Below are positions 6,151 through 35,641 of a DNA stretch of 35,641 nt, piece by piece. The stretch is from UHGV virus genome UHGV-0194711. One strand, 5' to 3'. Below the pieces are notes generated by a model. It had not been told where the DNA came from. It worked only from the letters and a program-made list of their open reading frames with translations, and did no database searches. The DNA comes from a virus. The position numbers and the translations under genes were made by a program. Numbering within the stretch: position 1 is the stretch's first letter; the number at the start of each line of letters is the position of its first letter.

Positions 6151-6488
6151 TTTTTCCGCTGTTGTATGCGTTCGATAACTTCCTGTGCTGCCCGTTCAGC
6201 CGCAGATACCTGTTGCCCCAGGCGGAATGCTTCATCGTCCGGATCCTCGCCGGGTTTAGGCGTCCCCCCGCGCGTATGCATGCCAATCAGCGAATGGACT
6301 TTTACCAGCAGCGTCAGCGATGCGGCCGCGTTCTTCTTATGCCAGTACCGATCACCGCGTTCCTGTTTAGTGTGCTTTGTGATTTCCTTCCCTGCCCCCG
6401 GCCAGTTATCCGGATCGGCTTCTTCCAGAACTACGTCGGTGAGCTTATCGCTAAGAGCAGTAAGGCGAGTTTTGTAATCTGAATGCAT
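6147..6488 (-). CDS. Candidate terminase small subunit (DNA maturase A)
   Basis: 113 aa charged protein immediately upstream of terL with ATGA stop/start overlap (translational coupling). Positional inference only. Confidence 0.45.
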   Translation of the reverse strand: MHSDYKTRLTALSDKLTDVVLEEADPDNWPGAGKEITKHTKQERGDRYWHKKNAAASLTLLVKVHSLIGMHTRGGTPKPGEDPDDEAFRLGQQVSAAERAAQEVIERIQQRKK

Positions 6489-17382: not shown

Positions 17383-17799
17383 TTACTTGTTATTACAGGC
17401 GCCCTGGCCGGAGTAGCAGTTTTCACACATGCGCTCATCGGTACACTGCTCACTGAGCTTTTGTTTCAGCAGGTAACCTTCCAGCATCCAAATCTTGTTA
17501 ACCGCATTCTCGCGGGCAATCTTGCGACCGATCTCCGGGTCGAAGTTTTGCGGGCTGGCGCAGGCGCTTTCGCCCGTGACGGTGAAGCCGTTGTGCAGCA
17601 CCAGAACACAAATCGTCAGCAGGTTCAGCGCTGGGCTGCAATCGTCCATTGCCGACTTATCAGGCCAGCCCGCCTGAACCGCTTCGCCGACGTTGAGATA
17701 ATGGCACTCTTTGATAACGCTCTCGATATGATCAGGCGTAACGCGCGGCGCGGTTAAGCCTTTAGCCTGAATTTGCTGCTCGATATCTTTGTCGCTCAT
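17383..17799 (-). CDS. Hypothetical Cys-rich protein (moron inserted between scaffold and capsid genes)
   Basis: 138 aa; own conserved TIR (GAGGAAAGACCAATG) and own terminator; C-terminal CxxC...C cluster (CTDERMCENCYSGQGAC). Confidence 0.6.
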   Translation of the reverse strand: MSDKDIEQQIQAKGLTAPRVTPDHIESVIKECHYLNVGEAVQAGWPDKSAMDDCSPALNLLTICVLVLHNGFTVTGESACASPQNFDPEIGRKIARENAVNKIWMLEGYLLKQKLSEQCTDERMCENCYSGQGACNNK

Positions 17800-17832
17800 T
17801 GGTCTTTCCTCTGGTTAGGTTGTCGTGACATG

Positions 17833-25688: not shown

Positions 25689-26357
25689 TTATGCCCTCTT
25701 GTTCTTCGCTGACTCGATGTAATAACGGGGATCGACGCTGTTAAGCGTGAAGTGAACCACCGGCATATCGTCGTGACGGGTGATACCCACGTAATTCGAC
25801 ATGAACATGCCGAACACGCGATCGTGAAGTTCTTTAGTCGTCACCTGACAATCGGGATAGTGCTTCTGGATTAATGCCAGAATGCCCTGGTAAGAAAGCG
25901 TTTTGCCTTTCATCACGGCTACCAGTTGCTGCGCGGTGACGCTCCCGGCGTCCTGTTGTGCGTCGCTGGCCTGCAATGGGCGGATACTCTCCAGCACCAG
26001 ACGGTGACGACCAATACTGCCGACGCGCTGGCCCGTTTTTTTATCGAAATGCTCATTTGAGCCAGCAGACCAGACAGTCGCGCCTTCGCTAAGGCGAACG
26101 CTTTTTTCACCTCTGGAATAAATCACGGTGCCGATGTGGGTTTTACGCCTGCGGCCGGAAACCGTAGGGGCGATAATTTCTCGCTTAATCGGTTTTTGCG
26201 GGGTGATGCCTGGTACAGGGGCCGGACGTGGCGCCGCTACGAACACGGAACGGCTACGGGCGCGCGCACCGGCATTCATGCGCCAGAGAATAACGGGGAG
26301 CCAGTTGCAGCCATCATCCGGTTTTACTGGTTTTGGGTAATTTAAATTCGTGGTCAT
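25689..26357 (-). CDS. Hypothetical protein (Pro/Arg-rich N-terminus, globular C-terminus)
   Basis: 222 aa; preceded by conserved TIR GAGGAAAGACCAATG and a conserved junction element. Confidence 0.5.
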   Translation of the reverse strand: MTTNLNYPKPVKPDDGCNWLPVILWRMNAGARARSRSVFVAAPRPAPVPGITPQKPIKREIIAPTVSGRRRKTHIGTVIYSRGEKSVRLSEGATVWSAGSNEHFDKKTGQRVGSIGRHRLVLESIRPLQASDAQQDAGSVTAQQLVAVMKGKTLSYQGILALIQKHYPDCQVTTKELHDRVFGMFMSNYVGITRHDDMPVVHFTLNSVDPRYYIESAKNKRA

Positions 26358-26395
26358 TGGTCTTTCCTCAGTTAAATCGCGCTGGTCAGGCGCGG

Positions 26396-28775: not shown

Positions 28776-28997
28776 TCAGATCCCCAGCGAGTCAGCCAGC
28801 TGACGGCAGGCGATTTCGTATTCTTTCTGGGTAAGTCCCGCTTCCTGCAGGTCTGCCTTGCGCAGTTCGTAGCGTTCCCAGATTGTCAGCGCAGTAGCGC
28901 GACGTTCCTCGAAAATCGATTCGATATCTTCCATCGGGACTTGTACCCCGTTCCGGCGAAACCCGTTCCGCCAGGTGATGCGGTCTTGTGTTCTCAT
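28776..28997 (-). CDS. Hypothetical small protein
   Basis: 73 aa; conserved TIR GAGGAAAGACCAATG at start. Confidence 0.45.
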   Translation of the reverse strand: MRTQDRITWRNGFRRNGVQVPMEDIESIFEERRATALTIWERYELRKADLQEAGLTQKEYEIACRQLADSLGI

Positions 28998-29017
28998 TGG
29001 TCTTTCCTCGGTACAGG

Positions 29018-29464
29018 TTAAACGCTGGTCAGGCGCTGTGTTTCTCGCATAGCTTGCAATGCTCTGGCGACTTGCTGCGGCCCGTCTCTGGCGTCGAGTA
29101 ATAACGCGATAATCGCCGCGGCAAACTCACGAATGGCCACACAAATTAAATACTGGGTGGACATACCCAAGCGCGCGTAACGTTCTGCCGGCAGCGCCGC
29201 TTCCATCGCTTTGACCAGCGCCAGAGTTTTGGCTCTCGCGGCTTTGGTCTCGCCTCGCAACCAACGAAAAATTTGTTGGCGGTTGTTGTTGATTGCCCGC
29301 CAGTCGGCGTTTCCATCTGCATCTTCGATCTGGTGCAGCTTCAGCGAACCGGTATTACCACCAAGACGAAACCACATGCGGCTTATCTCGATAGCAACCA
29401 GCTCCTGCCCGCTTTCCGCTGCCCAGTTAAAGATCTCTCGTTTAAGTTCTTCGAGGTATTCCAC
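29018..29464 (-). CDS. YdaT-like regulatory protein (Rac prophage CII-analogue family)
   Basis: Resembles E. coli Rac YdaT by memory (conserved ...QQIFRWLRGETK... block); sits directly after the Cro-like gene as in Rac. Confidence 0.5.
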   Translation of the reverse strand: MEYLEELKREIFNWAAESGQELVAIEISRMWFRLGGNTGSLKLHQIEDADGNADWRAINNNRQQIFRWLRGETKAARAKTLALVKAMEAALPAERYARLGMSTQYLICVAIREFAAAIIALLLDARDGPQQVARALQAMRETQRLTSV

Positions 29465-29724: not shown

Positions 29725-29792
29725 AGTTTCCTCTCCTAACGTCAGTTAGGAACATAAATACTAACGAAAGTTATGTCAAGTTAACTTATATT
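29725..29792. promoter_or_regulatory. Immunity-region divergent promoter/operator interval
   Basis: Palindromes CCTAACgtcaGTTAGG (29735-29750, overlapping the Cro RBS), CTAACgaaaGTTAT (29761-29774) and AAGTTAACTT (29779-29788) between divergent repressor and cro-like genes. Confidence 0.65.
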
Positions 29793-30206
29793 ATGGATAT
29801 GAAAAAATTGACCTTTAACGATCGCATTACATCGAGACGGAAAGAGCTTGGTTTGACACAACAGCAGCTCGCCGATGCCGTTGGCATATCTGGCGTCAGC
29901 GTTTACAAGTGGGAAGCAGGTATTAACACCCCAAAAGGGCAAAATCTGTTTTCTCTCGCTGAGGCTCTTCGTTGCTCTCCGACATGGTTACTTAACGGTA
30001 CCGATAGCGATGAACCGTTGAAGGCAGAAGAGCTTTTACCTCGGTTAGATGATCGCCAAAAGCTACTGCTTGATCTTTTTGATTCTCTACCTGAATCAGA
30101 AAAAGATAGACATATCAATGAGTTGAAAGATAAAGTTGACGGATTCCAGCGATTGTTTGATGAGTTACTTTTGGTAAAAAAGAAAAAAAACACTCCAAAA
30201 AAATAA
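29793..30206 (+). CDS. Prophage repressor, XRE-family HTH (CI/RacR-like), without S24 peptidase domain
   Basis: HTH LGLTQQQLADAVGISGVSVYKWEAG; 137 aa, too short for a LexA-like autocleavage domain; divergent from cro-like gene. Confidence 0.75.
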   Translation: MDMKKLTFNDRITSRRKELGLTQQQLADAVGISGVSVYKWEAGINTPKGQNLFSLAEALRCSPTWLLNGTDSDEPLKAEELLPRLDDRQKLLLDLFDSLPESEKDRHINELKDKVDGFQRLFDELLLVKKKKNTPKK

Positions 30207-30212
30207 ATTAAA

Positions 30213-30242
30213 GGCAATGTTTTCAATGCATTGCCTTTTTTT
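30213..30242 (+). terminator. Rho-independent terminator after the repressor gene
   Basis: GGCAATG...CATTGCC hairpin followed by TTTTTTT. Confidence 0.65.
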
Positions 30243-30255
30243 ACACCTCTAATAT

Positions 30256-30290
30256 TAACTTTTGTTAGTAAAAAACATTGCCAATAAAAA
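30256..30290 (+). promoter_or_regulatory. Candidate early-left promoter with operator-like site
   Basis: TAACttttGTTAG (operator half-sites as in 29735-29750) overlapping -35 TTGTTA (30262-30267), 17 bp spacer, -10 TAAAAA (30285-30290). Confidence 0.4.
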
Positions 30291-30457
30291 TACCTTTGGT
30301 TATGCTTCACCACATCAAAGACGCACTAACCACGCGGCAGTTGTTCAGAAACAGTTCTGACAGTCCGGAAAGACGGGCGCGAATTCTTCGGGTCGCCGAC
30401 AGTACGATGACATGCGGGAAAGACCGCAACGAATACGAATTGCTGTGTGTAGTCTTG

Positions 30458-30482
30458 GCCCGGGCGCCCCGGGCATTTTTTT
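30458..30482 (+). terminator. Strong rho-independent terminator inside the early-left leader
   Basis: GCCCGGG-cgc-CCCGGGC perfect GC stem followed by ATTTTTTT. Confidence 0.7.
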
Positions 30483-30706
30483 AAAGCATTCACGCAGTAA
30501 CGAGGAAAGACCAATGGGGCTGACCACCCTGACAGCCGGGAAAGACCGGCAACCTTCAGGCGTAAAAAAGCCCACCGAAGTGGGCTAATTTACCCGGGAC
30601 AGTGACCAAACCGCCCAGAATGCTACAGGGGACCAACCCTGTAGCGAGGAAAGACCAACGACAGAGCCGCTGATCGGCTCTGAGTATATATCATCAAGGA
30701 GTCGCT

Positions 30707-31030
30707 ATGGAAGCGCTTACCATCCCCGTAACTATTTACGTTATGGCCACAACCAAACCATATCTACCAACGTCTTATCACTCATTCACCTGTGACATGT
30801 CACAGCAATACCCTGATCTGTATGTCCTCGTTACTACCAAAACGGTAGAGGTTGCCATTCCAGCTTTAGAGCCAATCGACATTATTGGTATGCAGGTTAA
30901 TGCCCTTCGTGCGAAGAAAGAGAAAATCTCTGCCGAAGCAAAGAAGGAGCTGGGTGTTATTGAAGACCAGATTCAGCAGCTGCTGTGCATCGATCACTCT
31001 CCAATTGAAGAAAGCGACGTACCGTTTTAA
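30707..31030 (+). CDS. Hypothetical protein (first gene of early-left operon)
   Basis: 107 aa; AAGGAG RBS before ATG. Confidence 0.5.
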   Translation: MEALTIPVTIYVMATTKPYLPTSYHSFTCDMSQQYPDLYVLVTTKTVEVAIPALEPIDIIGMQVNALRAKKEKISAEAKKELGVIEDQIQQLLCIDHSPIEESDVPF

Positions 31031-31074
31031 TTAACCGGCGCGTGACCTGCGCCAGTAACCAAGAGGAAAGACCA

Positions 31075-33225
31075 ATGACCATCTACAACGGCTCATTTGA
31101 GCCAAAGAAATCGGCGATTAAAGACTGCGGCGCCGTGCAGCTGGCGATCGCCATCGATGCGCCAAACAAAAAAGTGGCCGAAAGCATTATGACCGGCAAA
31201 CTCTGGGAATCATACCCGGCCAATGGTGACAACTATTTCAAACCGAAACTGTGGGAACACGTTGAAGGCCAGCCGCTGCCGACCGTTGGCCAGTTCGATG
31301 AGTCATTCGCCCAGCAGCATACTTTTGACGGTGAAAAATGGGTTTCTACTGCGCAGGATAGCGCTTCCGGAAGTGGTGCAGGTTTACCAGCCGACGATGA
31401 AGTGATCGACCTGATGACCGTTTCCCCTGATGAACGCTTTGCTGCCGTCCTGCTTTTTAGCACCGCGGCGATTGATGGCCATCTTTATTCTCAGGTTGTG
31501 GATTATCTGGATAATCTGAAAAACCACGATGGGGAATTTGAAGAGGAAGATCGCTTTAACTTTAATGTTCTGTGCGCCCTGCAAAATAACTTCCCGGTTC
31601 AAAGCATGCATGTGGAAGGTCTGAACAATCTTATTCAGGGTATTTTCTCCCACTTTGAAAACCAGACGCCGGGCAAAGCGGCTATCTCTCAGTTCGTTAA
31701 ACGCTGGCTTGAGAATCCGGGCAAGCGCGACGAACTGGCCCCCGGCGTATATAAAAATACCGCTCTCAGCACCAGCACCGATGATAAAACACCCGTGGTA
31801 ATTTCTAAGCGCGGGTATAAACACACTTATGCAACGCTGGATCAGGAGATCGCTACCGCCCTTCTCCCGCTGGCGCCTGATGCGCCGGTACTATCCGGAA
31901 ACCTTCTGGACGCTAAGAAGATGATTTCCGATGACCGGGAAGATTTTAAACGCTGGTCAGCATCGCTGCACACCACGCCGCAGATACTCAAATACGACCG
32001 TGCCAGCATCTTCGGCGTGGTACAAAACGTACCGGCGAAAGATACCTACCATTTCCCTGACAGCCTGCGCCGCCATATCGATTCATGGCTGGCGGCCAAC
32101 GGTCGCTTTGAGGAAACCGAGACAGGATCCGTTAAACAACCAGAGGCGACGCAAAATACCGCCTCAAACGTGGGCGAAAAAGTGGAAGCGCAGCAGCCGG
32201 TTGTAACCGACACTCAGGCCAAACAGGCGCGTGAGACGCTCAATGATATGGGTTATGGCGTATATGCCTCTGGTGAAGGTGCAGAGCCGGAAGAGAAGTT
32301 AAGCGTTAAGGCTGAAAAACTGGCTGATGATTCCGAGCGTTTAGCAAAACAAATCGCTCACGCTGAAAGCCTGCCTAACGCTGAGGATGTTGTGCAGGCT
32401 GTCGGAAAACCAATTATCGGGGAAGACAATTTAGACCTCTGGAAACGCGTATTTAAAACCGACGAAAGGTTTACTAAGGCTTTCACACAGAACGGCGGTG
32501 GCACCTCGATCAACGGTACCTACATGACCATGCTTGCCACACGTGAGTTTGGCCCTAAGGGCATCGGCTGGGGCGTGGATATTGTTGAAGAGCGTTTCGA
32601 TATTGGCGCGCCGATCACTCGGCAGGTAAAAGGCAAAGACAACAACGCATCGTGGGAGCTGGTTCTTGATGGGAATGGTAATACCGTCAACGAACAGCAC
32701 CATGTTGTGACTGTCCGGCTCTGGTACATCCTGAACGGAGTACGAGGTGAGGAAACAGCATACGGCTGTACACCCTACATTTACGGTAGTAAATACGGGA
32801 TCACCTGCGACGGCGAAGCAGCCAAAAAATCACTGACAGATGCGACCAAAAAAGCGTTATCCGGCCTCGGATTCAGTGGCGATATCTTTATGGGGCTTTA
32901 CGACAATCTGGAGTACCGCCAGAAGAACAAGGCCGAGTTTGACCTGAAGAACGCCAGCGAATCAGCCGAAGATGCAGCACGGCTCCGCCAGGAGTTTGAC
33001 GATAAATTAAGCCGCGTTGCTAATACCCTGGCGCATGGCGTGACGGTGAACGAAATCAACGGTGTGTTTTCCCCTATCGCACGTGAGATCGATGTTCACA
33101 TTAAAGCCGCCCAGGCCAACGGCGACACGCAGCATGAACGTTATCTGTCTGGCCGGCTCCGCCGACTCATCTCCATCAAAGATGGGCGCATTAAAGAACT
33201 GAATAAAGCCGAGGAGAAAGCATAA
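31075..33225 (+). CDS. Large early protein with C-terminal Erf-like single-strand annealing (SSAP) domain and ~450 aa N-terminal region of unknown function
   Basis: Start at MTIYNG with conserved TIR. C-terminal segment ...YGCTPYIYGSKYGITCDGEAAKKSLTDATKKALSGLGFSGDIF resembles the Erf signature (SYARKYCLNGLFGID) by eye. Confidence 0.4.
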   Translation: MTIYNGSFEPKKSAIKDCGAVQLAIAIDAPNKKVAESIMTGKLWESYPANGDNYFKPKLWEHVEGQPLPTVGQFDESFAQQHTFDGEKWVSTAQDSASGSGAGLPADDEVIDLMTVSPDERFAAVLLFSTAAIDGHLYSQVVDYLDNLKNHDGEFEEEDRFNFNVLCALQNNFPVQSMHVEGLNNLIQGIFSHFENQTPGKAAISQFVKRWLENPGKRDELAPGVYKNTALSTSTDDKTPVVISKRGYKHTYATLDQEIATALLPLAPDAPVLSGNLLDAKKMISDDREDFKRWSASLHTTPQILKYDRASIFGVVQNVPAKDTYHFPDSLRRHIDSWLAANGRFEETETGSVKQPEATQNTASNVGEKVEAQQPVVTDTQAKQARETLNDMGYGVYASGEGAEPEEKLSVKAEKLADDSERLAKQIAHAESLPNAEDVVQAVGKPIIGEDNLDLWKRVFKTDERFTKAFTQNGGGTSINGTYMTMLATREFGPKGIGWGVDIVEERFDIGAPITRQVKGKDNNASWELVLDGNGNTVNEQHHVVTVRLWYILNGVRGEETAYGCTPYIYGSKYGITCDGEAAKKSLTDATKKALSGLGFSGDIFMGLYDNLEYRQKNKAEFDLKNASESAEDAARLRQEFDDKLSRVANTLAHGVTVNEINGVFSPIAREIDVHIKAAQANGDTQHERYLSGRLRRLISIKDGRIKELNKAEEKA

Positions 33226-33978: not shown

Positions 33979-34187
33979 CTCGCAACTGTCGTTAGCATTG
34001 TGATCTACCTATGAACCGGAGATCACAATGCTACGTTGGCAACCAGGCACACTTTTACTTTCAGATTTCGATATCAAAATTGGCAGGCTATCAGCCAGCG
34101 TTAGAAAGAGGACTCTGACCCAGTCCGATATCCAACGCGCTTGCGATACGGCAGACAACGCGATAGCCGGCATGCTGAGGAAAGACC

Positions 34188-34433
34188 ATGAGACACGATC
34201 ACGACATCATCACCAGAGAGGAAATGATCGAACTGACGGGGACCCCACTTAAATCGAGGCAGTGTGAAGCGCTACGTCGGGCCGGTGTCTTTTTCATGGA
34301 AAGGGCAGACGGCCATCCTAAAACGACGTGGGGCCATTTCCTGAACCCGATTAAATACCGCAACCAGCAGGAAGAGACGGTGCGGGAGGAAGAACCAGAC
34401 TTCGGAGCTATCTTTAATGGCCGGAAAACGTAA
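34188..34433 (+). CDS. DUF4224-family protein (excisionase-like, upstream of integrase)
   Basis: ITREEMIELTGTPLKSRQCEALRRAGVFF matches the DUF4224 pattern typically found next to integrases; TIR GAGGAAAGACCATG variant. Confidence 0.55.
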   Translation: MRHDHDIITREEMIELTGTPLKSRQCEALRRAGVFFMERADGHPKTTWGHFLNPIKYRNQQEETVREEEPDFGAIFNGRKT

Positions 34434-35433
34434 GAACCCCGCTGATAACTGGATGCCGCCCCGCGTGTATCGCGGTAAGGCGGCGTATGAATTCAGGAAT
34501 AAAGATAACAAGGCTATCAGGCTATGTGCGCTCTCCGAGCCTCAATCAGCTGTATGGCTGGCATATGAAAAAGCCATGGGAGAAGAAGTCGAGCGCAAGA
34601 CGTTTCAGGCTCTGGCCGATCAATTCATGTCTTCCCCTGACTGGCAGGATTTAGCGGCAGAAACCCGCAAAGACTACACGAAATACGCAGGCAAAGTGTT
34701 GCCGGTGTTCGGGAAGGTTAACCCCGATAAAATTAAACCGGAACACATCCGGCGCTATATGGATCAGCGTGGCATGGCCAGTAAAACGCAGGCCAACCGG
34801 GAAAAGAGTTTTCTTTCTCGGGTATTCCGCTGGGGTTATGAGCGGGGTTACGTCCAGCATAATCCCTGTCAGGGCGTTAAGAAGTTCAAAGAGGCAGCCC
34901 GGGAGCGTTACATCACCGACGAAGAATACAAAGCGGTTTACGATGTTGCTCCAGACGTAGTTCGCGCCACCATGGAAATCGCTTATTTGTGTCTGGCCAG
35001 ACAAAGCGATGTGCTGGCTTTGACTGAAGACCAGATACGCGAAACCGGGATCTTTATCCGCCAGGGGAAAACAGGCGTGAAGCAAATCAAAGCATGGTCG
35101 CCACGCCTGCGCGCCGCTGTCGCCCTCGCCCGTTCCCTGCCGTTAAAGCCGGGTATCCGTAGCCTGTTTGTCATTCACCAGACCAGCGGCAGCAAATACA
35201 CCCGTGACGGTTTTAATTCACGCTGGCGCGACGCGAAAATCGCAGCGCAGGAAAAGAACCCACACCTGCAGATAGATTTCACTTTCCACGATCTGAAAGC
35301 GAAAGGTGTCTCTGATCTGGAAGGAAGCCTCGAGGAGAAACAGGCGATTTCAGGCCATAAGAATTCGAGACAAACGGCGATTTACGACAGGAAAACTAAA
35401 ATTGTGCCGGTTGTTGGTGGTCAGAAAAAATGA
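34417..35433 (+). CDS. int: Tyrosine recombinase / phage integrase
   Basis: 338 aa; C-terminal catalytic region HDLKAKG...GHKNSRQTAIYDR (H-x-x-R and Tyr); adjacent to tRNA att site. Confidence 0.9.
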   Translation: MAGKRKNPADNWMPPRVYRGKAAYEFRNKDNKAIRLCALSEPQSAVWLAYEKAMGEEVERKTFQALADQFMSSPDWQDLAAETRKDYTKYAGKVLPVFGKVNPDKIKPEHIRRYMDQRGMASKTQANREKSFLSRVFRWGYERGYVQHNPCQGVKKFKEAARERYITDEEYKAVYDVAPDVVRATMEIAYLCLARQSDVLALTEDQIRETGIFIRQGKTGVKQIKAWSPRLRAAVALARSLPLKPGIRSLFVIHQTSGSKYTRDGFNSRWRDAKIAAQEKNPHLQIDFTFHDLKAKGVSDLEGSLEEKQAISGHKNSRQTAIYDRKTKIVPVVGGQKK

Positions 35434-35490: not shown

Positions 35491-35619
35491 CAGATACAAA
35501 AAAACCACCCGTAGGTGGTTTCACGACACTGCTTATTGCTTTGATTATTCTGCTTTATCCCAATGGTACCCGGAGCGGGACTTGAACCCGCACAGCGCGA
35601 ACGCCGAGGGATTTTAAAT
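35491..35619. repeat. Right attachment-site direct repeat (attR), including terminator hairpin and tRNA-Leu 3' half
   Basis: Near-identical to 156-283; preceded by tandem CATCTTCGGA repeats (35459-35480) that may be integrase arm sites. Confidence 0.85.
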
Positions 35620-35641
35620 CCCTTGTGTCTACCGATTCCAC
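35564..35641 (-). tRNA. leuZ: tRNA-Leu (anticodon UAA), truncated by the window edge (5' ~9 nt outside)
   Basis: Reverse complement reads ...GTGGAATCGGTAGACACAAGGGATTTAAAATCCCTCGGCGTTCGCGCTGTGCGGGTTCAAGTCCCGCTCCGGGTACCA; anticodon loop tTTAAaa gives UAA; matches enterobacterial leuZ from memory. Confidence 0.85.

Follow-up and report, generated by a model that had tools for sequence, protein, structure and literature searches.

IsrB is a mapped 88/94-nt (nucleotide) RNA of the Salmonella prophages Gifsy-1 and Gifsy-2, antisense between STM1010 and the recE homologue sbcA (PMC2330248), and it is reported to associate with ProQ and suspected of a role in lysogeny (PMC5391140). In the host small RNA RprA of E. 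coli, nt 60–105, "the highly conserved region", suffice for repression of csgD (PMC3465796), and a processed form consisting of the last 47 nt is active (PMC9262595). Small RNAs also arise from the terminators of phage operons, as described for PreS of lambda (bioRxiv 10.1101/2024.10.31.621285) and for StxS (PMC7547250), and the putL element of HK022 starts at +1 of the early-left promoter PL (PMC9378689). Here we analyze positions 30,207 to 30,706 of UHGV virus genome UHGV-0194711, a 35,641-nt stretch of DNA that we refer to as the window; the window is a lambdoid (Gifsy-like) enterobacterial prophage, and the interval is its left-arm control region. Also relevant to this region are the small phage immunity RNAs c4 of P1/P7 and CI of P4, which are complementary to repeated leader sequences overlapping a ribosome-binding site and are processed from the same strand as the operon under their control. 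Papers on an E. coli "IsrB" concern a different RNA of the same name.

Our reading of the interval, to which we assign a probability of roughly 0.55, is that it holds two convergent small-RNA genes, one for a PL leader RNA with an RprA-like end and the other for an antisense RNA that silences genes sharing a translation start site. The PL RNA would comprise a conserved 5' arm, two hairpins with GAAAGA loops, and, at its 3' end, a module corresponding to RprA's active 3' domain (nt 60–105), and the opposite strand would encode a structured RNA of ~115 nt, related to Salmonella IsrB and bearing the complement of the shared start site. Reading the sequence and comparing it with relatives established how the locus is built and conserved, which strand encodes the structured RNA, and where the complementarities lie.

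Related loci (given L numbers here) were retrieved with the 107-aa (amino acid) product of the first early-left gene as query, which returned 49 loci from IMG/VR, and by BLAST the region was also located in phage BUCT708 and, among complete E. coli genomes, in 454. Citrobacter murliniae and Raoultella lignicola share an exact 32-mer with the leader. One architecture is common to all of the related loci, about 50 in number. The record "Stenotrophomonas phage vB_SmeS_BUCT708" (L001, L177, OM816834) is 87% identical in this region to enterobacterial prophages, and its stated host is doubtful.

A predicted PL leader RNA with an RprA-like 3' module

The repressor gene ends at its own terminator, and a PL-type promoter comes next, with two copies of the PR/PRM operator word flanking or overlapping it (Table 1). 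Apart from the second operator, these are among the features recorded in an earlier note on this DNA, nearly all of which are present, with small coordinate offsets and far above chance: the operator-like word is TAAC-N4-GTTA at 30256, beside the candidate promoter TTGCCA-17-TATGCT, and the plus-strand terminators placed at 30213-30242 and 30458-30482 were found at 30210-30243 and 30458-30482. TAAC-N4-GTTA occurs exactly three times in the window (0.35 expected): the stretch from cro to the repressor gene has two copies, at 29737 and 29762, and the third is at 30256 (TAACTTTTGTTA). Besides the one-mismatch copy over the -10 hexamer (TACCTTTGGTTA) a further such copy lies at 29782. Across the ~50 loci, a conserved sequence starting ~7 nt past the -10 adjoins repressor genes, operators and promoters that differ from one another; relatives with other repressor genes each have their own terminator at the same place, and their unrelated promoters (TTGACC-17-TAATAT, TTGACG-17-TAGATT) finish at the same point. 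Because conservation begins ~7 nt after the -10 below such differing promoters, we place the transcription start near 30314, from where most PL transcripts would be expected to stop 169 nt on, at a strong intrinsic terminator.

The likeness to RprA lies at the 3' end of this RNA, in an 18-mer, ATTGCTGTGTGTAGTCTT, that is identical to RprA nt 60–77, the anti-csgD seed. In an alignment to E. coli rprA the 18-mer is followed directly by the terminator, and the last 44 nt of the RNA begin with it. A permissive scan with the Rfam model of RprA (RF00034) matches 30383-30484 at 43.3 bits, below the cut-off of 70 (E 0.0017; 22 consecutive identical nt), and relatives score 36.8–50.2 bits, all under that cut-off. 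The transcript of ~180 nt ending at 30482 that the earlier note had envisaged is, as judged from its sequence, a partial RprA look-alike, which that note had missed.

Although the terminator stem and the 10 nt upstream vary, 51 of 53 loci have an identical 18-mer; since these loci were found via the neighboring protein, the sample is unbiased for the 18-mer. An exact search of IMG/VR, which as a pattern search gives no measure of conservation beyond this phage family, finds at least 120 viral contigs that contain the 18-mer; the stems after it are of many kinds but self-complementary, and the contexts before it are mutually unrelated. In complete E. coli genomes the RprA 3' domain is present at 6,188 places in 5,424 genomes, 764 of them beyond rprA; matches occupy up to four places per genome, and 27 are on plasmids. 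No account of a phage-borne RprA look-alike was found in the literature searched.

The module of the window is predicted to pair with the csgD 5' untranslated region (UTR) at ACUACACACAGCAGU with -32.2 kcal/mol, compared with -29.8 for RprA itself and -16.3±2.7 for shuffled sequences. The stretch of RprA that pairs with rpoS, AUCCCCUGAGUGAAACAACGAAUU, is represented in the window only by ACGAAUU, and even this varies among relatives. The gene setting of RprA (chromosomal, between ydiK and ydiL, with an Rcs/Cpx promoter) is not reproduced, as the module is part of a prophage and has an operator-controlled PL ahead of it; no search was made for an RcsB box. The notion that rprA-ydiL is a relic of such an immunity region was rejected, YdiL being unrelated to the phage repressor. 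Within the phage, no convincing target of the 18-mer was found other than its own complement.

Folding of the full-length RNA predicts that the 5' arm, AAGAC...CACGCGGCAGUU, masks the seed. The duplex of arm and 18-mer has a predicted energy of -22.0 kcal/mol (shuffles -13.1±3.1), is present in both the minimum-energy and the centroid fold, and is still predicted in BUCT708 (L001) despite 255 nt inserted in the middle of the RNA. The probability that the 18-mer is unpaired is 0.11 in the full-length leader RNA and 0.51 in RprA.

The 5' arm could also be read as part of a put-type cis antiterminator, in which the conserved first ~45 nt fold, bind the polymerase, and allow protein-free read-through at 30482. 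This 5' element starts at +1 of PL, as putL of HK022 does, and it is the most widely conserved part of the plus-strand RNA, being common to the L049 and L050 types and resembling the PL leader of Gifsy-2; some device is, moreover, needed for passing the terminator. However, the element has no sequence similarity to HK022 putL or putR, there is no second copy of it downstream of PR or elsewhere in the window, and no two-stem 70-nt structure is predicted, the region pairing with the 18-mer in the minimum-energy fold. We therefore regard a put-type element as rather unlikely. As an observation in its own right, the Gifsy-2 PL leader (L174 4190-4255, minus strand) resembles the 5' leader of the L049/L050 type (GTTCCGC.GGCCGG.CGATA..GCAAA) and is without both the RprA-like module and the terminator.

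Several further observations concern what precedes the 18-mer. Structured inserts of 250–330 nt lie between hairpin 2 and the 18-mer in L001 (3120-3395), in L003 (3255-3585) and at the same place in L007. These are long imperfect hairpins of the type (C)ACAAC..GAGAGCGCAC...GUGCGCUC..GUUGU(G), without a match in Rfam, and the same type occurs upstream of the 18-mer in dozens of unrelated phage contigs (L054, L055, L060, L066, L090, L123, L127, L130), where some enclose two sub-hairpins resembling the T-arm of tRNA (GGTTCGATTCC). A tRNA reading of these pieces was rejected, as ARAGORN found no tRNA in eight loci (L054, L055, L066, L123, L127, L130, L107, L138). Together the hairpins look like an undescribed family of structured elements. 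In a third context the module stands directly after the stop codons of protein genes (L062, L065, L109, L124, L137, L145), preceded by CCATCCCCTGA(A/G)TCATCC, which also matches RprA nt 41–50. These copies resemble the 3' half of RprA over ~55 nt and look like small RNAs derived from 3' UTRs.

A predicted antisense RNA on the opposite strand

A hairpin with a T-run on the opposite strand, which the earlier note had placed at 30565-30590, was found at 30586-30569. What that note did not recognize is that, from its sequence and surroundings, this hairpin appears to be the terminator of a separate structured antisense RNA. The A-run to the left of the hairpin, which is the T-run of the minus strand, is present in all relatives; the plus-strand tail is poor (UAAUUUA, CAGUUA). 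The minus strand from 30673 to 30560 folds with -55.1 kcal/mol (z -6.58) into two hairpins with UUGGUC loops, the terminator and a single-stranded stretch, and this minimum-energy structure makes up 37% of the ensemble.

The structure is conserved, and on this strand in particular. In hairpin H3 the aligned cells give 123 Watson-Crick pairs, 42 G·U pairs and 5 mismatches on the minus strand, as against 123, 0 and 47 on the plus strand, counts that overstate the number of independent events as the main-group sequences are closely related. The G·U pairs would be A·C mismatches on the plus strand, which favors the minus strand. The covariance check across relatives that the earlier note had called for bears out the minus-strand hairpins: RNAalifold reports 14 pairs with compensatory changes in an alignment that leaves out the diverged L050/L051 relative. 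Hairpin H4, which the note had listed among its small hairpins, changes in a compensatory manner at seven of its eight pairs. In an alignment-free comparison the minus-strand fold is the more stable in 14 of 15 distinct variants (-30.8 versus -26.4 kcal/mol). In the set searched, a covariance model of the antisense RNA picks up a further 13 loci on 12 distinct contigs, each belonging to this phage family, along with weak matches antisense to the start sites of the five genes discussed below.

Adjacent to H4 lies the single-stranded UUGGUCUUUCCUC, an exact complement of the start-site 13-mer GAGGAAAGACCAA. In the alignment 12 of its 13 bases are invariant, and two variants have A for the last C. 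When both strands of the window are scanned with the segment carrying it, the cis site ranks first, and the five gene starts together with a look-alike at 30502 make up six of the next eight matches, with predicted pairing energies between -29 and -32 kcal/mol (background over 23,742 windows, -11.3±4.0 kcal/mol). A site away from gene starts, GCGAGGCGAGACCAAAG at 29260 (minus strand) inside the YdaT-like gene, has a predicted antisense pairing of -29.1 kcal/mol.

At the place and on the strand of the predicted antisense RNA, the Rfam isrB model (RF01386) scores 28.7 bits in the window, the cut-off being 35. It matches seven sequences, namely the window and 6 of the 12 relatives scanned, with up to 33.3 bits (L036, L045, L049). 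The second of the small hairpins in the earlier note (30663-30681) is a palindrome with GATC at its apex. This GATC (Dam) is retained in all relatives even where the arms change, and it sits between the candidate antisense -10 and the 13-mer.

A shared translation start site and its copies in the leader

The word GGAAAGAC occurs 11 times in the window where 0.98 would be expected, a count reached in 0 of 100 shuffles. Its plus-strand copies in the interval stand at 30367, 30417, 30504, 30539 and 30648, and a sixth follows at 31065; the five copies counted in the earlier note are thus real, although the stem-loops that they form number three and not two. That note had also not seen that five phage genes have the repeat as their signature ribosome-binding site. 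GGAAAGACC lies within the 13-mer GAGGAAAGACCAA, the region where translation of five real phage genes starts. When all 11 copies are read in context, GAGGAAAGACCA(A)TG is seen to be the ribosome-binding site plus start codon at 31075 (+), 34188 (+), 28997 (-), 26357 (-) and 17799 (-), two of these being genes of the PR operon. In phage BUCT708 the same orthologues carry the motif, and relatives with 50% protein identity retain the 13-mer with different spacings to the ATG (CAATG, CAAAAATG, CAATATG). As the 13-mer is kept at differing spacings, it is the word itself that is conserved and not merely a Shine-Dalgarno distance.

In the interval there are two full look-alikes of the start site (30502, 30646) and three 5-bp (base-pair) hairpins that present the motif with a GAAAGA loop. 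Between the two terminators, relatives carry from one to three additional tandem units. Within the interval, the plus-strand copies resemble decoys, start sites that lack a conserved open reading frame (ORF). The two ORFs that the earlier note had offered as N-like or leader peptides were both rejected as genes. The ATG of the arginine-rich 60-codon ORF (30302-30484), which is absent from relatives with other promoters, lies inside the -10 hexamer and so upstream of any PL transcript. The 24-codon mini-ORF (30514-30588) has decayed among relatives, with ATG in 38 of 53 related loci, ACG in 11, and products of 8–89 aa in differing frames.

One of the five genes encodes a 73-aa protein (phrog_2465; 28776-28997, minus strand) with an arginine-rich N-terminus, MRTQDRITWRNGFRRNG, that could be an RNA-binding protein and whose own start site bears the 13-mer. 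The counterpart in BUCT708 bears the annotation "adenylate cyclase", apparently in error.

This protein and the hairpins also enter into a different explanation, nut-type antitermination, whereby the GAAAGA hairpins, preceded by UGACAG, would be boxB-like sites for an arginine-rich phage protein and the polymerase would pass 30482 and later terminators. Like lambda boxB, the hairpins combine a G+C stem of 5 bp with a loop rich in purines, two of them stand upstream of a strong terminator that expression of the operon must pass, and hairpin 1 shows a compensatory change (CCG/CGG to CUG/CAG in L027, L072 and L003). The N-terminus of the 73-aa protein of the PR operon would suit the protein partner. 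Yet the PR operon has no such hairpin, the minus-strand copies of the motif there being plain translation start sites; the loops are hexaloops and not GNRA-like pentaloops; and L049 and L050 retain the terminator but are without hairpins 1 and 2. In hairpin 3 the stem varies uncompensated among relatives while the 9-mer is fixed. There is likewise no N-like first gene, as the arginine-rich ORF of the interval starts inside the -10 and the 107-aa protein is not arginine-rich, and scans of the phage proteins with Pfam, PHROGs and NCBIfam found no antiterminator, N-like or RNA-binding protein. As for boxA, the words CGCAnTAAC at 30322 and 30493 bear only a loose resemblance. We consider this explanation improbable. 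Where the earlier note had left a choice between a nut- or put-like leader and a regulatory RNA locus controlling the early-left operon, the latter fits and neither antitermination model is supported. Polymerase may pass the 30482 terminator by means of a put-like 5' arm, nut-like hairpins or simple leakiness, and the tests that we ran spoke against the first two.

Conservation of the 13-mer as a unit, at variable spacing to the ATG, would also be expected if GAGGAAAGACCAA were the site of a protein, either a phage translational regulator or host CsrA, with the leader copies titrating that protein or being regulated by it. CsrA binds GGA in hairpin loops, and direct reading of the plus strand finds about eight GGA in the ~350 nt from 30360 to 30706, several of them at the 5' side of hairpin loops; the units are also tandemly multiplied in relatives. 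The conserved word is, however, far longer than a CsrA site, and family scans gave no candidate protein. A sponge of the CsrB/RsmX type is not indicated either, with rsmX scoring 26 bits (cut-off 56) and on the minus strand, and with only about eight GGA present. An exact and invariant complement of the 13-mer lies single-stranded in an RNA whose hairpins are selected on the minus strand, which explains the motif without an extra factor, and we find a protein-binding role for the repeats unlikely.

It might finally be supposed that the interval has no dedicated function, the repeats being relics of duplicated gene starts or joints, the RprA piece a borrowed terminator, and the minus-strand hairpins a bidirectional insulating terminator complex. 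The number of units does differ between loci, insertions of 250–330 nt are tolerated, the mini-ORFs have decayed, and the start of the leader is the exact point at which different immunity modules join. We nevertheless give this account little credence: the 18-mer and the 13-mer stay (nearly) invariant while flanks and stems change, H3 and H4 show compensatory changes and strand-specific G·U pairs, the motif is kept in relatives with only 50% protein identity, and the 18-mer has spread over many unrelated phage contexts.

A possible model for control of the early-left operon

Under the two-RNA model that we favor, the antisense RNA would be made in the lysogen, as IsrB is in Salmonella lysogens. 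It would pair in cis with any PL transcript that reads through the terminator, and in trans with the five start sites, where it would block ribosome binding on leaky transcripts and so give immunity a second layer. Once the prophage is induced, PL RNA in abundance, with 2 to 5 look-alike sites (up to 7 in relatives), would titrate the antisense RNA and free the genes, and the RprA-like 3' module, probably processed or unmasked, would act with Hfq on host targets of RprA such as csgD. Silencing in the lysogen, titration, and the action on csgD are steps that we infer from the arrangement described above.

A number of points weigh against this model. Both RNAs are predictions from sequence and fold, titration is deduced from the count of complementary sites, and the matches to RprA and isrB both fall below the curated Rfam cut-offs. 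The long-range helix between the 5' arm and the 18-mer has no clear support among distant relatives (-13.3 kcal/mol in L049 versus -11.9 for shuffles; -19.2 in L050 versus -13.7±3.4), and the main group is invariant across it, so that no variation there bears on the helix. For the antisense RNA, a two-hexamer consensus scan did not detect a promoter and no good -35 was found. A model of H3, H4 and the 13-mer without the terminator (R1) gives no match to Gifsy-2 isrB (L174) at E up to 1, and in the 7 kb of Gifsy-2 read, the sole GACCAA outside isrB is not at an annotated gene start; the anti-start-site logic is therefore not transferable from IsrB. Lastly, if PL is fully repressed in lysogens, the RprA-like RNA would be made in the lytic phase only, where control of curli has no obvious benefit.

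A more far-reaching proposal, which we hold to be doubtful, is that the locus is a prophage RNA switch in which an IsrB-like anti-start-site RNA, acting in trans on early genes with one identical ribosome-binding site, is countered on induction by a PL-leader sponge of 5 to 7 look-alikes, and a portable RprA domain, present in many unrelated enterobacterial phages, takes over targets of the csgD type (curli and biofilm), the leader acting as a platform for structured RNA cargo such as the 250–330-nt inserts.

If the prediction for the plus-strand RNA is right, a mobile functional core of a host stress small RNA is carried by temperate phages of E. coli, Citrobacter, Raoultella and their relatives. 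The ~760 extra copies in 5,424 E. coli genomes would then tie prophage induction or carriage to the control of curli and biofilm, and would explain part of the strain-to-strain variation in RprA-dependent phenotypes. The antisense RNA would, if our reading is correct, give a role to prophage RNAs of the IsrB type, which have had no known function since 2008, namely the trans-silencing of genes that share one start site. Both ideas, the action on csgD and start-site silencing, can be checked with simple reporters and compensatory mutations.

Genomic setting and feature coordinates

The gene content around the interval (Table 1) shows that the finding concerns the region separating the repressor gene from the early-left operon. 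The 81-aa gene, whose BUCT708 counterpart is annotated DUF4224, possibly encodes an excisionase. At the edge of the window, a 5'-truncated tRNA with a long variable arm (35567-35641, minus strand) adjoins the integrase gene and thus probably marks the attachment site; at curated cut-offs, Rfam finds nothing in the whole window besides this fragment.

Table 1 Features of the interval and of the surrounding window (strand: + or -; a dot marks features without strand)
Feature	Position	Strand	Details
P22_Cro gene, then YdaT, O-like and DnaB-like genes		-	P22_Cro gene divergent from repressor gene
Start-site motif at 138-aa gene	17797..17811	-	predicted pairing -29.8 kcal/mol
Start-site motif at 222-aa gene after dnaB	26355..26369	-	predicted pairing -30.7 kcal/mol
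Start-site motif at 73-aa PR-operon gene	28995..29009	-	predicted pairing -32.0 kcal/mol
Repressor gene	29793-30206	+	137 aa, HTH_3; gene calls, family scans
Intrinsic terminator of repressor gene	30210..30243	+	11-bp stem then U-run; -14.2 kcal/mol, z -5.1
Operator, upstream of -35	30256..30267	.	TAACTTTTGTTA, TAAC-N4-GTTA
PL-type promoter	30278..30306	+	TTGCCA-17-TATGCT
Second operator	30291..30302	.	TACCTTTGGTTA, one mismatch, overlaps -10
Predicted terminated PL leader RNA	30314..30482	+	~169 nt, from promoter and terminator; fold -62.7 kcal/mol, z -2.9
Conserved 5' arm	30318..30341	+	AAGAC...CACGCGGCAGUU; predicted to pair with and mask the 18-mer
Hairpin 1	30363..30378	+	5-bp stem, GAAAGA loop, carries GGAAAGAC; z -2.05
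Hairpin 2	30413..30428	+	5-bp stem, GAAAGA loop, carries GGAAAGACC; z -4.0
18-mer	30439..30456	+	ATTGCTGTGTGTAGTCTT
Intrinsic terminator of leader RNA	30458..30482	+	stem 30458-30474; 7 G-C pairs, 3-nt loop, A, U7
Translation-start look-alike	30502..30514	+	GAGGAAAGACCAA then ATG, without conserved ORF; predicted pairing -31.0 kcal/mol, third-best target counting the antisense RNA's own site first
Hairpin 3	30535..30550	+	5-bp stem, GAAAGA loop, carries GGAAAGACC; z -4.95
Predicted IsrB-like antisense small RNA	30679 to 30563	-	~115 nt, 5' end approximate
Antisense RNA terminator	30564..30586	-	stem 30570-30585, covaries: CCCAC/GUGGG, CCCGC/GCGGG
Hairpin H3	30594..30618	-	loop UUGGUC (GACCAA on + strand)
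Hairpin H4	30622..30645	-	loop UUGGUC; compensatory changes
Single-stranded complement of start site	30646..30658	-	UUGGUCUUUCCUC
Palindrome	30663..30681	.	GATC apex; arms covary in some relatives, absent in others
Candidate antisense -10	30683..30688	-	TATACT, conserved in all relatives; TGATATAAT in L049, TGATATACT in L050
Shine-Dalgarno and ATG of 107-aa gene	30696..30709	+	AAGGAG
First early-left gene	start 30707	+	107 aa, phrog_2479 full length, function not assigned
True start site of RecE-like gene	31063..31077	+	GAGGAAAGACCAATG; predicted trans target, -30.8 kcal/mol
RecE-like exonuclease gene	start 31075	+	716 aa; Gp157 gene also to right of interval
Start site of 81-aa gene	34177..34190	+	GAGGAAAGACCATG; predicted pairing -29.0 kcal/mol
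81-aa gene	start 34188	+	just upstream of integrase gene
Integrase gene	34417-35433

Comparison with known systems

The leader RNA shares with RprA the identical nt 60–77, a G+C terminator with a U-run directly after them, a small hairpin at the position of the second hairpin of RprA, and the predicted pairing with the csgD 5' UTR. It differs in scoring below the Rfam cut-off and in sharing only the 3' domain, with neither the 5' stem-loop of RprA nor the AUCCCCU part of its rpoS-pairing site. It also differs in being driven by a repressor-controlled phage promoter and not a host promoter, in being carried on prophages and phages, and in embedding the module in a 169-nt RNA that is predicted to mask the seed.

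The antisense RNA resembles IsrB in its place, within the early-left operon of a lambdoid prophage and upstream of a RecE-type gene, in having its own terminator, and in its order, a UUUGGUC-loop hairpin and then a G+C terminator. It has two additions that IsrB lacks, hairpin H4 and the anti-start-site 13-mer; a single hairpin and the terminator are what the two share. Because both of our RNAs score below the cut-offs of their families, the one having the RprA 3' domain only and the other the IsrB hairpin and terminator only, and because the reciprocal model fails, we file them as variants and not as members of these families.

With lambda nutL/N and HK022 putL the leader has in common its position, directly downstream of PL and upstream of a terminator, and its small G+C hairpins with purine loops; it differs in that an N-like protein is missing, the PR operon offers no partner site, and the sequence does not resemble put. 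Like c4 and CI, the antisense RNA is a small phage RNA complementary to repeated leader sites over a ribosome-binding site, which in those phages constitutes an immunity layer. The Rfam C4 model has no match in the window, where the structured RNA is on the opposite strand; transcription here is convergent, and the predicted targets are the starts of several dispersed genes. Also similar to the leader RNA are lambda PreS (also LPR1) and StxS, RNAs of the Hfq type that end at an intrinsic terminator inside an early or late phage operon and act on host mRNAs. Their sequences are unrelated to that of the leader RNA, which has its start right at the promoter and reproduces the seed found in a host small RNA.

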